Virus record (IMG/VR): IMGVR_UViG_3300033463_000039
Span: 32,001 to 96,000 of that record
Length of the DNA stretch: 64,000 nt
From: a virus
Taxonomy: Duplodnaviria; Caudoviricetes
Strand: one strand, 5' to 3'
Shown here piece after piece: positions 51,279 through 58,687 of the stretch (position 1 is the stretch's first letter; every line of letters begins with the position of its first letter). The translations under genes were made by a program, and so were the position numbers. The notes beneath the pieces were generated by a model. The model ran no database searches. It was given only the letters and a program-made list of their open reading frames with translations, and had not been told where the DNA came from.

Positions 51279-52005
51279 TGAGATGTCCAGGCGAAAACTT
51301 TTTAAGAGTACTTAAAAAATTTTTTCCCAAAAATGTACCCCATTAGAGTTCCTAAATGGTACGTTTGCGTAGTACATAGCATTGGAATAAAGGAGAGTAC
51401 TAAAAGAGGATTGGAATAAAAAGAACAAGAAAAATAAAAAATAATTATTCAACATTTTTCTAAAAGTTTTTTATTTTATTTTTAAAATAAAAATTATTAA
51501 TGATCGGCTTGCTTGCGGTTATGGCAAGCCGAATTTTACAGTTTACATAATGACTAAACTTTTTTGCGAACAAAAATTTGTTTTTTTACAAATGTTTTAA
51601 ATTCCTAAAACTCTTGTGTCTGTAGGTTTCCGCTTCAGTACAGTAATCAAAAAGCGAACATTTGTTTGGTTTACATAATTTATTATTTTGCGAGTTACCA
51701 AATTTTACCAATCCGCTTCAAACCTTACTCTAACAAGGCTTACACGCTTTAAAAAATATTTTAAAAAAGTTACGGAAAAAGTATTGACAAAGGTTCGTTA
51801 ATAATGTATAATAGTATTAAGTTAAGAGAGAGAACAAACAAAGAACAAAAACAACAAAACTAATAAAAGATAATAACAAAGAAAAGACAAAGACAAACAA
51901 AAGATTTTGTAACAAAAATGTAATAAAATAAATAACAAAAACTTATTGACAAAACATAATAAAAAGATTATAATTAAGATAACAAAAGGAAAGGAAAAAA
52001 AGAAA

Positions 52006-52233
52006 ATGAAAGATTTAAATAATAATGAAAGAAATGAGAAAAAATTAGGAATTGCAAAATTTATGAAAAGAAGTGATTTTGGTTTGTATGATTTAAGAAT
52101 AATAAATGATGAAGATTACTTTGACAAAGAAGATGATTGTGGAATAATGTTCTTTTCTAAAAAAGGTATGACAGACTTTTTAAAAGAAGAATTCGAAAAT
52201 TACAAGTTTACATTAGTAGAATTAAAGGCTTAA
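52006..52233 (+). CDS. Small hypothetical early protein (75 aa)
   Basis: ATG at 52006 after AAAGGA. It has its own promoter and a following hairpin with U tract. The track start lies inside the promoter. Confidence 0.75.
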   Translation: MKDLNNNERNEKKLGIAKFMKRSDFGLYDLRIINDEDYFDKEDDCGIMFFSKKGMTDFLKEEFENYKFTLVELKA

Positions 52234-52358
52234 CAAAAGCCTTTTTTCTCTAACATCTATTGACAAATAAAAACTTTAATGATAAAATAATAATAACGAA
52301 AGAAAAGAAAAAGAAAGCAAAGTAAACATAATTAGATAGAAAAGGAATTGAATTGATT

Positions 52359-52847
52359 ATGAAAAAAATATTTTTAGATTTAGATGGAACATTAGCAAAA
52401 TTTAATGTTAGAAATGCAATAGAAAGATTTGCAATTGAAGAAGGTTTTTTCGCAAAACTTGGAGCATACAAAGGAATTGAAAACATAGATGAATTAGCAA
52501 AAAATGGAAATGTTTACATTATTTCTGCAAGTCCAAACGAGCAAGCAGACAAAGATAAGTTGACATGGATTGATAAGTTCTTACCAAACTTGCCAAAAGC
52601 AAACATTTGTTTTTGTAGATTAGGAAAAAATAAAGCGAAAGAAATAAAAAAGAATTTTAACATACAAATAAATAAAGAATGTATTTTACTAGATGATTAT
52701 ACTAAGAACTTAGTAGAATGGGAAAGCGTTGGCGGAGTAGGGATTAAGAGATTAACTTCTGTTGCTGATAACAAAAGTGGAAAATGGAAAGGATTAGCAA
52801 TTAGAAACTTAAGAGAACTAAAAGGCGCATTAACTCTTGTAACATAA
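52359..52847 (+). CDS. HAD-superfamily 5'(3')-deoxyribonucleotidase-like phosphatase
   Basis: Motifs IFLDLDGTL, IISASP, K..WI and ILLDDY..NL.EW...GG.GI. Confidence 0.85.
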   Translation: MKKIFLDLDGTLAKFNVRNAIERFAIEEGFFAKLGAYKGIENIDELAKNGNVYIISASPNEQADKDKLTWIDKFLPNLPKANICFCRLGKNKAKEIKKNFNIQINKECILLDDYTKNLVEWESVGGVGIKRLTSVADNKSGKWKGLAIRNLRELKGALTLVT

Positions 52848-52936
52848 ATGTAATATTTATTTTTTAAAAAAAGTGTTGACAAATAAAAATAAAAATAGTA
52901 TAATGTAATCAAGTTAAGAGGAAAGGAAAAAAACAA

Positions 52937-53149
52937 ATGAAAAATTTAAGTGATAAAACAAAAGTAGAAATAATGGTAGGAAAATTAGTAATCTTCTTAT
53001 TAAAAAGTGTAATTGCCTTTGGTGCTTTACTAATTGGAATTTGGTTAGTTTGTCAAATTTATAATTTTGTACTAATTCACACTTGGGCATTTATAGTTTT
53101 AGGAATAGTTGACATAATTCTATTTATTGTTTTCATAATCAGAGGTTAA
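52937..53149 (+). CDS. Small two-TM membrane protein
   Basis: 70 aa with two hydrophobic segments, its own promoter and a terminator at 53150-53174. Confidence 0.75.
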   Translation: MKNLSDKTKVEIMVGKLVIFLLKSVIAFGALLIGIWLVCQIYNFVLIHTWAFIVLGIVDIILFIVFIIRG

Positions 53150-53536
53150 AAGCGGGCGGCAACCCCGCTTTTTTCTTGGCTTTGCGGAAGGCTGTAACCC
53201 TTGCAGCTGTAAGGCTTTTGCGCAACGGCGCGCTACCGATTGAATTTAATGAAGCGCGCCGAGTTTACATAATATTAGTACCGAACAGATTTTCGGAACG
53301 GGAAACCCTTGCTACACTTGGGTTTGCAATCTCCTGAAAGTGCCGCTTCTACTGAGGTAGCGAAAACCGAACATTTGTTTGGTAGCACTGAACACGCGTT
53401 TGGGTTTACATAATTTTGTAACATTATTGTAATATTTCTGTAACAAAAATGTAATAAAAAAAATTGTAAAAACTATTGCAATTTTTTTTATTTATGATAT
53501 AATTAAGACAATGAAACGGGAGGAGAAAAACAAAAA

Positions 53537-56127: not shown

Positions 56128-56439
56128 TCTCAAAGCCTAGAGCCACAAAGGTTCTAGGCATTTTTTTTTGTCTCAAAAACAAACATTTGTTCGGGCGGGC
56201 GGCGCGTGGGTGGCCGCTCTGATGTACTGCGCGCCGCGTTTACATAATAACTTAACTTTTATACATTTTTAACTGGCAGCCGCGAACATTTGTGTGGTTT
56301 TAAAACTCCTAAAATTAAGCGTTTGAGCCATTTTTTTTTTATTTTTGCGATAATGACATCATTTTTCAAAAATTTTTAAAATCTGCTTGACAAACTAAAT
56401 AAATTTTGATATACTTTAAGTAAAGAAAGGAAGGGAAAA

Positions 56440-56940
56440 ATGAAAGAATTAGAAATTTTAAAAAATGGAATGGTTAACATAATTGAAATCTATCAAAATT
56501 TTGTAAATAAAATTGATGATACTATTGAAATTAAACAAGGTGAAGACTACACTGCAAGCCTTGAAGACTGGGACATTGAGATACCTTTAATCGTAAGCGA
56601 GAGTAACACTGATAAGTTTATGCTAAGTGTTAGGGAAATGAGCTATTCTAACGACCTTGTAAACTCAATAGACGCAAGTGTTTGGAGCTTTTTACATGAA
56701 ATTGGTCATTTACAAACTAGACAAGGCGATTTAAAATCAAAAGTTATAAGATTTTTAAGTCATAGATTTAAAAGTCCATTACAAGATAAAATTTACTATA
56801 ATATTCCAGAAGAATTAAACGCAACAGAATGGGCAGTAAATTATGTAAACCTAAATTGGTATGAAGTAAAAGCCTTTGAACAAGAGCTTTTGAAGGCTTA
56901 TGAAACCCTTTATACTAAAGTACTTGCGGAGGCTGTTTAA
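56440..56940 (+). CDS. HExxH zinc metallopeptidase (ImmA/IrrE-like), paralog 2
   Basis: SFLHEIGH...PEELNATEWA. Confidence 0.7.
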   Translation: MKELEILKNGMVNIIEIYQNFVNKIDDTIEIKQGEDYTASLEDWDIEIPLIVSESNTDKFMLSVREMSYSNDLVNSIDASVWSFLHEIGHLQTRQGDLKSKVIRFLSHRFKSPLQDKIYYNIPEELNATEWAVNYVNLNWYEVKAFEQELLKAYETLYTKVLAEAV

Positions 56941-57298
56941 GCCTCTTTTTTTATGTAAACCTACAGATCTTCACCGGTGCGCAATTATGTAAACCAAATG
57001 GCAAATCCTGCCTTTTCTGCTTAACAAAAAAAGTTCAGTATTTATGCGGCTTCCGCGTCTTTTTCAAAAAAATTTAAAAAAAGTGTTGACATTTAAAAAG
57101 TAAAATGTTATAATAATTATAATGAAAGAGAGAGAAAAAAACAAAAATCTTTTTCAAAAAAAATTTTTTAAAAAACTTTTAAAAACCTATTGACATTTAA
57201 AAATTAAAATGTTATAATAATTATAACAAAAGCAATAAACAACCTTGAGAATTGCTTGAAAAGGTTCATAAATTAACATAAAAAGGGAGGAATTGAAA

Positions 57299-57661
57299 AT
57301 GGAAAACAAAAAAGTTACAAAAAGAGAATACTATGGAATGATTTTAGGAATGGCTGAAGTTCAAGAAAGACAAGACTTAGTAGATTTTATCAATCATGAA
57401 ATTGAATTATTAGACAAAAAAGCAAGTGCTAAAAGACCTACAAAAGTTCAAATCGAAAATGAAAACATAAAAGGAATAATCCTTGAAACACTTGAAAATC
57501 TAGGCAAAGCAGTTTCTATCTCTGAAATGCAAGAAGCAAATGAAGATTTAGCAATATTATCAAATCAAAAAATTAGTGCTTTATTAACTCAATTAGTAAA
57601 GGCTGAAAAGGTTGCAAGAGTAGAAGATAAAAGAAAAACACTTTTCAAAATTGCAGACTAG
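57299..57661 (+). CDS. Winged-helix protein, family A copy 2
   Basis: Shares LLDKKASAKRPTKVQIENENIKG and LAILSNQKISALLTQLV with copy 1. Confidence 0.8.
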   Translation: MENKKVTKREYYGMILGMAEVQERQDLVDFINHEIELLDKKASAKRPTKVQIENENIKGIILETLENLGKAVSISEMQEANEDLAILSNQKISALLTQLVKAEKVARVEDKRKTLFKIAD

Positions 57662-57772
57662 AAATTAAGGCGGGTAAGCCTTGCCCGCCCGCCTACTTTT
57701 TTAAAAAAACTATTGACATTTAATTATTAAAATGATATAATTACAATAGTGAAAGGGTAAGAGTGAAAAAAA

Positions 57773-58156
57773 ATGAAAAATAAAAAAGATATTAAAATAC
57801 CAAAAAATTACATTGAGCAAGCTATGAAAAGCCTTGATATTACTGAAGAAGAGGCTATCCAAATGTATTTAGAAGATGAAGGCATTGAAATCAATGAAGA
57901 ACAAGAGAGATTATGTAAACTTGCAAAAGAAAACAAAACAGGCGCAAAAGCAGATAAAAAGCCAAGAAAACCAACAGAGCGCAAACCTAAAGAAAATCCA
58001 ATAAAAGAACAAATAATTAAAGAAATTTACCAAATTTTAGAAAAAAATAACAATTATTGTAATATTTTGGTAACAAATTCAACTAAAACTATTGATTTTT
58101 CAATAGAAAATAGAAATTTTACAATAAATTTAATAGAACACAGACAAAAAAAGTAA
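57773..58156 (+). CDS. Hypothetical protein, family B copy 1
   Basis: MKSLDITEEEAIQMYLEDEGIEINEEQE, shared with the 60147-60644 product. Confidence 0.8.
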   Translation: MKNKKDIKIPKNYIEQAMKSLDITEEEAIQMYLEDEGIEINEEQERLCKLAKENKTGAKADKKPRKPTERKPKENPIKEQIIKEIYQILEKNNNYCNILVTNSTKTIDFSIENRNFTINLIEHRQKK

Positions 58157-58687
58157 GAAATTGTCCTAAAACTTGCGGAAACCGCTTGTTTTAGGGCTTT
58201 TTTATTGCATTTTGCATAATAAGTTTACATAATTCAGCGGGCCGCGGACACCGGTGCGGCTCCGTTTGCAGGTTTACATAACAACTTTACATATTTTAAT
58301 GTCAAAAAATAGTTTACATAATAATTATACATAATCCCAAAATAGAGGGCGAACCCATGTTCGACCGCAAGGCTCCTTGAGGCCGACCGCGACTATATGG
58401 CCAAGTTTTTTAGGCTTAGTTGGGCCGCTTCGCGTTCAATAATATTTTTCCCGAAAACATAGGGTACCTTTAGGTTTATATAACACCTAAACATAAAATT
58501 TTAATTTTATGAAGCGGCCGCACTCGGTAGGAAGATTATATGGTCTAAATTTAGAATATTTTATTTGGAGATTTTAATCCCTAACGCAACACAGTATTAT
58601 ATGATTGATTATTATAAATTTTTATGATATAATTAAAAGGGAATATAATATAATATATATAATATTATTATTTATATGTCAATAGAA

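Follow-up and report, generated by a model that had tools for sequence, protein, structure and literature searches.

We analysed a 64,000-nucleotide stretch of phage DNA (hereafter the window; bases 32001-96000 of the 117,993-bp virus contig IMGVR_UViG_3300033463_000039), with attention to short motifs that recur in the spacers between the small genes of one block, 51137-58719 (hereafter the island). Three kinds of motif are found there: a 10-mer that we call the A box, which is identical letter by letter to most of the XerD arm of a bacterial dif site; a palindrome of the LexA type (B box); and a direct repeat of the WalR/VicR type (C box). No other block of the window is on the plus strand; the minus strand carries the genes for portal, tape measure, and other virion proteins to the left of the island and a sigma-factor gene to its right. 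It holds 10 small genes and one possible mini-open reading frame (ORF); the ten genes code for an NT5C-type deoxyribonucleotidase, an exonuclease-like protein, two paralogues with a HEIGH motif, two winged-helix paralogues, and four proteins of unknown function. Thirteen sigma-A promoters, all on the plus strand, match 11-12 of the 12 consensus letters (10 are perfect TTGACA-N17-TATAAT). The island genes contain 0 in-frame TGA and 17 TGG in 1382 codons, compared to 153 TGA and 112 TGG in the long frames elsewhere, indicating that the early genes would be translatable before the suppressor tRNA is made. The island is, by sequence, a classical early or host-takeover block that is read by the unmodified host polymerase and ribosome.

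The phage itself is a lytic phage of ~118 kb from the cattle gut that reads TGA as tryptophan. When genetic code 4 was used, the coding capacity in long frames rose from 82 to 129 kb, and a tRNA-Trp(UCA) adjoins a tRNA-Trp(CCA) (genome 106057-106237). The two ends of the contig overlap by 134 bp with one mismatch, within a ligase gene (genome 1-134 vs. 117860-117993); the assembly thus closes and the genome is probably complete at ~117.9 kb, and the label "78% complete, linear" is probably too low for a contig whose ends overlap. Considering strong matches only, near-identical DNA was present in just two DNA sequencing runs, both of a single bovine gut sample from which the contig may derive; among the sequencing runs listed, no RNA run with matching DNA was present. 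No lysogeny genes were found in the phage genome. A host among the Bacillota is most likely, judging from the sigma-A promoters, the strong Shine-Dalgarno sites, the types of site described below, and the Enterococcus relatives. A blastn comparison of the island with cultured phages returned just one 80-nt match, and an Rfam scan of 50500-59500 at E up to 1 returned no match in the spacers.

The window contains 15 copies of the A box, GTTTACATAA, where 0.30 would be expected; none of 100 shuffles reached this count, and every copy lies within 51541-58321. The whole 118-kb genome contains 16 copies, of which the 16th is inside a ligase gene. The reverse complement of the box, TTATGTAAAC, equals positions 1-10 of the XerD arm of Bacillus subtilis dif, a site that is experimentally defined and whose 11-bp XerD arm is TTATGTAAACT (PMC3025954). 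At the 11th arm position, 132 copies of the A box from this phage family have mainly T (64 copies) or C (51 copies), and natural arms have both. Alignment of the same 132 copies yielded the consensus R-GTTTACATAA-T-nn-CTT-n-AC. Quantification of one-mismatch variants in ten islands revealed that 37 differ at box position 4, 29 at position 1, and hardly any at positions 5-10; the first two correspond to arm positions 7 and 10, respectively, which is exactly where the arms of Escherichia coli, B. subtilis, and F. alni differ from one another. There was no XerC arm beside the box: in the 132 copies, positions +19 to +27 are devoid of information content, and nAC stands at +16 to +18 in place of TTA/TTC. 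The lack of a XerC arm rules out the A box as a complete dif site, and we also rejected A boxes as pdif-type Xer modules, given the missing XerC arm and their irregular orientations. An RNA motif is unlikely because the box is present in both orientations inside a block that is transcribed one way. In the NT5C gene of two relatives (L010:7274; L070:1540) an A box encodes a conserved peptide, GNVYII, and the copy of this box in the window (52499-52523) has one mismatch; some copies inside genes are thus coding by-products.

The B and C boxes showed the same confinement. Five sites in the window match CGAAC-N4-GTTCG with no more than one mismatch (the site at 58350 is perfect) and four match CGAAC-N4-GTTYG, and all LexA-like boxes with at most one mismatch are within the 7.6-kb island, as are all four of the latter form. 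The matrix of the B boxes of the family, CGAACAwwTGTTCG, is the LexA matrix of the Bacillota (Firmicutes), with A at position 6 and T at position 9. The C box, TGTAAC-N5-TGTAAT, was found five times in the window, always in the island, against 0 expected. The refined form of the WalR/VicR consensus, TGTWAHA-N4-TGTWAHA, is that of Streptococcus VicR (PMC4168254); it has six matches in the island against 0.0 expected, and the boxes fit TGTWAH-N5-TGTWAH as well. Measuring the distance from the proximal C hexamer to the -35 element in six phages revealed values of 5, 16, or 27 nt (± 1) in 13 of 14 cases, that is, a ladder of 11 bp. This phasing favours control in cis for the C element, and the placement of the A and B boxes is more in keeping with a structural or occupancy role.

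To place these motifs in a wider context, we collected relatives by means of the exonuclease gene (54107-54799) and two composite DNA patterns, and found the motifs conserved in at least nine related phages. The island genes are in part common to these relatives (NT5C, exonuclease, HEIGH proteins, the winged-helix pair, and gene 10). In five full-length relatives (118-182 kb), the A boxes were concentrated in one island per genome (19 of 20, 11 of 11, 22 of 22, 6 of 8, and 8 of 8), and the reversed control word occurred 0-3 times. When ten islands were pooled, 133 exact A boxes were present in 71.8 kb, in comparison to 1 in 150.8 kb of other DNA of these phages; likewise, B boxes with at most one mismatch numbered 32 in the islands of the family and 0 outside. 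The order A box, C array, -35 recurs in L185, L076, L201, L110, L011, and the window, and the exact 10-mer is kept between phages whose exonucleases share only 36% identity. The A box is, as read from these sequences, a sharp marker of the early region in this uncultured phage family.

Other sites stand in the same spacers of some relatives. Perfect parS sites (TGTTTCACGTGAAACA) are present in the early spacers of L076 (3192-3237 and 5310-5618), L102 (6731-8306), and L136 (13460); in L076 a parS pair sits between two A boxes, which is the slot of the LexA-like boxes in the window, and the island of the window has no parS. Two more distant relatives without A or B boxes, L012 (2141-8434) and the cultured Enterococcus faecalis phage EF1 (L253:4030-5596), have, where the early block begins, 4-5 palindromes of the cre (CcpA) type, TGTAAGCGCTTACA, that are perfect or nearly so. 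In addition, a group of phi29-like phages (L027, L072, L093, L026, L036/L037, and L048; contigs of 10-15 kb from phages of 14-15 kb, with a protein-primed polymerase, inverted terminal repeats of at least 110 bp, and the standard code) has, 13-45 nt from the termini, TTATGTAAAC directly joined to a CGAACA half-site, together with a full LexA-type box in L072 and L093. Those that carry this composite have no protein in common with the phage studied here. As a side observation, TGTCGAA, the Spo0A-box consensus, is present six times in L140:3000-7800, where a simple shuffle predicts ~0.7; the signal is weak, since several of these words may be coding. L013 lacks A boxes, and 5' of its exonuclease gene (at 7172-7360) some ten copies of a 19-bp repeat (TAACTTAGTTAAAGCTAAC) stand in tandem.

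A preliminary description of this DNA had taken the spacers to be repeats of one composite module whose motifs are selected. The module positions that it gave are accurate (full modules at 51504-51974 and 53226-53503, partial ones at 54799, 56180, and 58222), and the counts above speak for it on two points that it had named as refuting, in that the motifs are enriched and are retained in relatives. The order that it proposed, hairpin, A, B, B, A, C, promoter, is complete in modules 1 and 2 but not in the other modules. The sequence between the motifs, said to be unconserved, has indeed roughly diverged; however, modules 1 and 2 still align after masking of the motifs (score 48, compared to 23 ± 8 for shuffles), indicating that they are diverged duplicates and that their common order is partly inherited. 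In these two modules, the motif cores stayed identical while the remainder drifted. A CCTT-N8-AAGG palindrome had been placed between the two LexA-like boxes, where it does not occur; its copies are at 51723, 53199, and 55598, and we dropped it as a module element, since the copies are too few, misplaced, and present in just 3 of 10 related islands. The GC-rich hairpins fared differently from place to place: those at 51504-51532 and 53226-53261 fold better than shuffles (z about -3.1), but the stretches at 54796 and 56192 are GC-rich without being significantly structured. Across the family, a GC-rich hairpin lies directly 5' of 9 of the 132 A boxes, compared to 0.7% of random positions, and the hairpin-plus-box junction seen at 51504 is also present in L009, L076, and L010.

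Table 1. Positions of genes, promoters, hairpins, and boxes in the early gene island (window coordinates).
Feature	Position	Strand	Remarks
Early gene island	51137-58719	+	Sole + block; no in-frame TGA; 13 promoters
GC-rich hairpin, 10-bp stem	51504-51532	+	Left island border; followed by AATTTTACA, then A box; -16.9 kcal/mol, z -3.1
A box (XerD-arm type)	51541-51550	+	Module 1
Weak LexA-like box	51567-51580		2 mismatches
B box, LexA-like	51655-51668		1 mismatch; abuts next A box
A box	51669-51678	+	Module 1
Consensus promoter	51784-51812	+	No ORF behind; ~130-nt A/G-rich leader
C box (WalR/VicR-type direct repeat)	51908-51924	+	Proximal hexamer 27 nt from -35 start
Consensus promoter	51946-51974	+	Of gene 52006-52233
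Promoter (11/12)	52260-52288	+	Of NT5C-like gene
Early gene, NT5C-type 5' deoxyribonucleotidase	52359-52847	+	
C box	52838-52854	+	Overlaps NT5C stop codon; proximal hexamer 27 nt from next -35
Consensus promoter	52876-52904	+	Of gene 52937-53149 (70-aa hydrophobic protein)
Hairpin plus T run	53154-53170	+	Intrinsic-terminator-like
GC-rich hairpin, 9-bp stem	53226-53261	+	Module 2; abuts A box; -18.2 kcal/mol, z -3.1
A box	53263-53272	+	Module 2
B box	53282-53295		1 mismatch
B box	53368-53381		1 mismatch; 14-mer identical to 51655
Weak LexA-like box	53389-53402		2 mismatches
A box	53404-53413	+	Module 2; 13 nt before C array
C array	53417-53455	+	Four TGTAAY hexamers, 11-bp period
Promoter TTGCAA-N16-TATAAT	53476-53503	+	Of gene 53537-54001
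A box	53837-53846	+	Within gene 53537-54001
Consensus promoter	54046-54074	+	Of exonuclease-like gene
Early gene, exonuclease-like (phrog_20187)	54107-54799	+	Query for finding relatives
A box	54827-54836	+	Module 3; GC-rich stretch before it
C box	54840-54856	+	Proximal hexamer 16 nt from -35 start
Consensus promoter	54867-54895	+	First of tandem pair
Consensus promoter	54956-54984	+	Second of tandem pair
Early gene with HEIGH motif	55220-55699	+	Paralogue of 56440-56940
A box (reverse)	55655-55664	-	In 3' end of gene 55220-55699
Consensus promoter	55707-55735	+	Of winged-helix gene 55768-56127
Early gene, winged-helix protein	55768-56127	+	Paralogue of 57299-57661
Intrinsic terminator	56135-56159	+	
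B box	56180-56193		1 mismatch; module 4
A box	56238-56247	+	Module 4; GC-rich stretch before it
Weak LexA-like box	56283-56296		2 mismatches
Promoter (11/12)	56387-56415	+	Of gene 56440-56940
Early gene with HEIGH motif	56440-56940	+	
A box (reverse)	56841-56850	-	Within gene 56440-56940
A box (reverse)	56951-56960	-	Just after terminator 56928-56946
A box (reverse)	56985-56994	-	
Consensus promoter	57086-57114	+	First of tandem pair
Consensus promoter	57190-57218	+	Of winged-helix gene 57299-57661
Early gene, winged-helix protein	57299-57661	+	
Consensus promoter	57713-57741	+	Of gene 57773-58156
A box (reverse)	57911-57920	-	Within gene 57773-58156
A box	58223-58232	+	Right-border module
A box	58272-58281	+	Right-border module; after hairpin 58236-58266
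A box	58312-58321	+	Right-border module
Perfect LexA-type box CGAAC-N4-GTTCG	58350-58363		Right border

Three further observations concern the genes and promoters of the island and its right edge. The two HEIGH paralogues have a common LHEIGH motif (HExxH, as in zinc metallopeptidases), are both present in relatives too, and gave no significant match in Pfam. At three places (51784-51945, 54867-54955, and 57086-57189), a consensus promoter is followed by a ~60-130-nt leader that is rich in A/G, has a GAGAGAG-like stretch, and holds no ORF, and then by a second consensus promoter; such units may represent promoters in tandem or give rise to short early transcripts that are non-coding. To the right of the island, where the minus-strand genes begin, a match to the Rfam L20 leader (58686-58781, minus strand; 32 bits against a cut-off of 59; E 0.0025) is probably due to chance.

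Host proteins binding the boxes is the best reading of these data, and one in which we have about even confidence. We infer from the boxes which proteins these would be and what would follow from their binding. The genome of the phage, whose assembly closes, codes for no homologue of XerD, LexA, WalR, or ParB (no integrase, S24 peptidase, Trans_reg_C, or ParB_N domain was found). Under the host-protein reading, proteins that the cell contains before the phage DNA enters would occupy the boxes of the island, and the long spacers would be composite control regions, each with a terminator or GC-rich stretch, 1-3 A boxes, B palindromes, and a sigma-A promoter, and with a phased C array at four of the promoters. 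Phosphorylated WalR on the C boxes would tie the output of these four early promoters to wall growth, and LexA on the B boxes would make the region sensitive to the SOS state. XerD would bind by itself to the A boxes between operons and to those that border the island on either side (51541/51669 and 58223-58321), as it does at the XerD-only sites (XDS) of the Bacillus terminus, and the A boxes may then serve as roadblocks or unloading points for machines that track along DNA, such as Smc-ScpAB and perhaps FtsK/SpoIIIE or ParB clamps.

The published XDS offer the closest comparison for the A box. XDS are sites of the B. subtilis terminus that are bound by XerD only and unload Smc-ScpAB, and an inserted XDS array blocks translocation (Karaboja et al. 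2021, Mol Cell, as related in excerpts of PMC11840125 and PMC10945525). In Bacillus spizizenii TU-B-10 (G001), GTTTACATAA is not enriched overall (13 copies vs. 15 of the control), and 6 of the 13 copies lie no more than 190 kb from dif (2045810), in the region 1.86-2.21 Mb. Of the five non-dif copies near dif, four read GTTTACATAA-N6-TATTG and one has TATTT; they consist of the arm only and, in sequence, look like the published XDS class. The phage A boxes resemble XDS, as far as these are described in the excerpts, in having a 10-11-bp XerD arm without a functional XerC arm and in occurring as several copies in a short stretch. They differ in that they are on a lytic phage, at a density of ~2 per kb, in either orientation, between early operons, in that the second half is CTTnAC where Bacillus has TATTG, and in that they adjoin LexA-type and WalR-type boxes; the phage sites are, moreover, known from sequence alone.

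Several points weigh against the binding of host proteins as outlined above. The conserved flanks of the A box (T at +10, CTT at +13 to +15, and AC at +17/+18) match neither dif nor the arm-only sites of Bacillus, which lowers the fit of the A box to XDS, with the limit that the comparison was made with Bacillus, which may not be the host's genus. The extended A box (16-mer) was not enriched in 401 sampled Bacillota genomes (3 vs. 6 for the control), and 5 of the 15 A boxes in the window are within genes. The LexA-like boxes of the window are ~100-200 bp upstream of promoters, do not overlap the -35 or -10 elements, and mostly have a GTTT half; in the relative L140, tandem B boxes abut the -35. 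The promoters already match the consensus and would hardly need an activator, so that any effect of WalR may be of either sign. Finally, matching a repeated word to many known sites carries a look-elsewhere risk, which is reduced by the variation profile of the A box and by the 16/16 parS matches in relatives.

A possible but rather doubtful alternative is that the boxes are operators of phage-encoded regulators, for example the four winged-helix paralogues, that shut off or time early transcription, with the likeness to host sites being a coincidence or mimicry. Besides the two winged-helix genes of the island, which are behind consensus promoters, there are two more nearby (62550-62900 and 63729-63920, both on the minus strand); the family has more than 1900 metagenomic homologues and no Pfam model. 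The AlphaFold model consists of three N-terminal helices and a winged helix, a confident but generic fold (predicted local distance difference test, pLDDT, 90), for which Foldseek returned MarR/ArsR/Z-alpha-type matches, none below E 0.001. Matches in Pfam were sub-threshold and spread over many winged-helix families, including, for one paralogue, the LexA DNA-binding domain at 18.4-18.7 bits, below the cut-off; with Pfam sub-threshold and Foldseek generic, we do not claim these proteins as LexA-like binders. The flanks of the A box that extend beyond the XerD arm and are absent from Bacillus and from the sampled Bacillota genomes would also suit a phage-encoded binder. The winged-helix family and the A box are doubly dissociated: G003 (100% complete), G005, and G006 (92%) have A boxes and no member of the family, and L013 has two members and no A box, which led us to reject the family as the A-box binder. 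L140 and L109 have A boxes and share 0 of 10 island proteins tested, and the phi29-like phages with the composite share no protein with this phage. An exact 10-mer across exonucleases as diverged as those above would be unusual for a phage protein that co-evolves with its site, and the variants tolerated in the A box are those of real XerD arms.

We consider it improbable that the boxes are recombination points at which early cassettes are shuffled between co-infecting phages, either by short homology, as with the promoter/stem-loop units of T4, or by host Xer, as with pdif on Acinetobacter plasmids. Such shuffling would account for the variation of gene order and content between spacers while the boxes persist (the order of exonuclease and NT5C is swapped in L011), for modules that differ in position relative to orthologous genes, for spacers that flank units of 1-2 genes, and for the use of a recombinase arm as the A box. 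However, there is no XerC arm, no defined 6-bp centre, and no regular inverted pairing of the boxes, 10 bp is too short for homologous exchange, the phage is without an integrase-family recombinase, and both the phased C arrays and the LexA-type palindromes would be left unexplained. Equally unlikely is that the boxes are decoys which, present in many copies on replicating phage DNA, titrate LexA, WalR, and XerD off the chromosome and so derepress SOS, disturb wall turnover, and block dimer resolution: the sites are numerous and of consensus strength, most B and many A boxes are not placed to control a promoter, and some A boxes are inside genes, but in six phages the C arrays keep a strict helical register with the -35, which speaks for control of the promoters in cis, and the sites are confined to one island though a genome-wide spread would titrate equally well.

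The preliminary description had wavered between a multi-input control panel and a landing pad or decoy for host proteins. All sequence tests that we ran agree with its premise that the motifs are selected sites of the host-factor type, but these tests do not separate the two roles.

Host-factor sites on lytic phages are already known. On the genome of the lytic phage phi29 there are Spo0A boxes and parS sites, to which Spo0A and Spo0J of the host bind (PMC2731898). As in the phage studied here, these are several consensus sites for host proteins near the early promoters and ends of a lytic Bacillota phage, their number and kind vary among relatives, and some relatives of the present phage also carry parS. 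In contrast to phi29, the sites here are of the XerD, LexA, and WalR types and form repeated composite modules on a much larger and recoded phage, and they are known from sequence where those of phi29 are experimentally proven. Bacillus tectivirus GIL01, a temperate-like phage, has dinBoxes (LexA operators) that overlap the promoters they repress. These are Firmicute-type CGAAC-N4-GTTCG boxes on a phage genome, as are ours; in the present phage, which is without lysogeny genes, most boxes are 100-200 bp upstream of promoters and beside XerD-arm boxes. The PeSL cassettes of T4-type phages consist of an early promoter plus stem-loop repeats that mediate gene shuffling, with no additional conserved protein-site words. 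They share with the island repeated units of terminator hairpin and early promoter between small early genes, and a mosaic content, but here it is the A, B, and C boxes that are conserved and not the whole cassette. In lytic alphaproteobacterial phages, CtrA sites recur in promoter regions and were proposed to couple the lytic programme to host state (excerpts of PMC9437464). These, too, are sites for a global regulator of the host in lytic phages; unlike the island, they involve, as far as the excerpts go, a single regulator in another phylum, with no recombinase-arm or SOS-box part. In the literature searched, we found no description of XerD-only arrays, alone or with LexA-type or WalR-type boxes, in the early region of a phage.

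A wider proposal, which we put forward tentatively and regard as unlikely as a whole, is that of viral XDS elements. By analogy with the bacterial sites, an entire family of large, recoded gut phages and, independently, phi29-like phages would carry XerD-only arrays that recruit the host recombinase without recombination and serve as boundaries at which SMC and other DNA-tracking machines are stalled or unloaded. Such arrays would frame exchangeable slots (LexA here, ParB/parS in L076); several phages have WalR-type arrays next to the A boxes, and relatives that are free of A boxes have CcpA/cre. The whole would amount to a management in cis of the chromosome-organising proteins of the host.

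If the binding of host proteins is true, the phage would, with cis sites alone, read three separate states of its host (the organisation of the chromosome, damage to DNA, and growth of the wall). The XerD-only arrays would then be the first XDS-like elements outside the bacterial terminus and a handle on the dealings of phages with SMC, for which a viral protein inhibitor of MukBEF is the only anti-SMC device that we found in the literature searched (excerpts of PMC7617805). The same logic may apply with other regulators in relatives, for example cre in the cultured Enterococcus phage EF1, which would make the principle testable at the bench.

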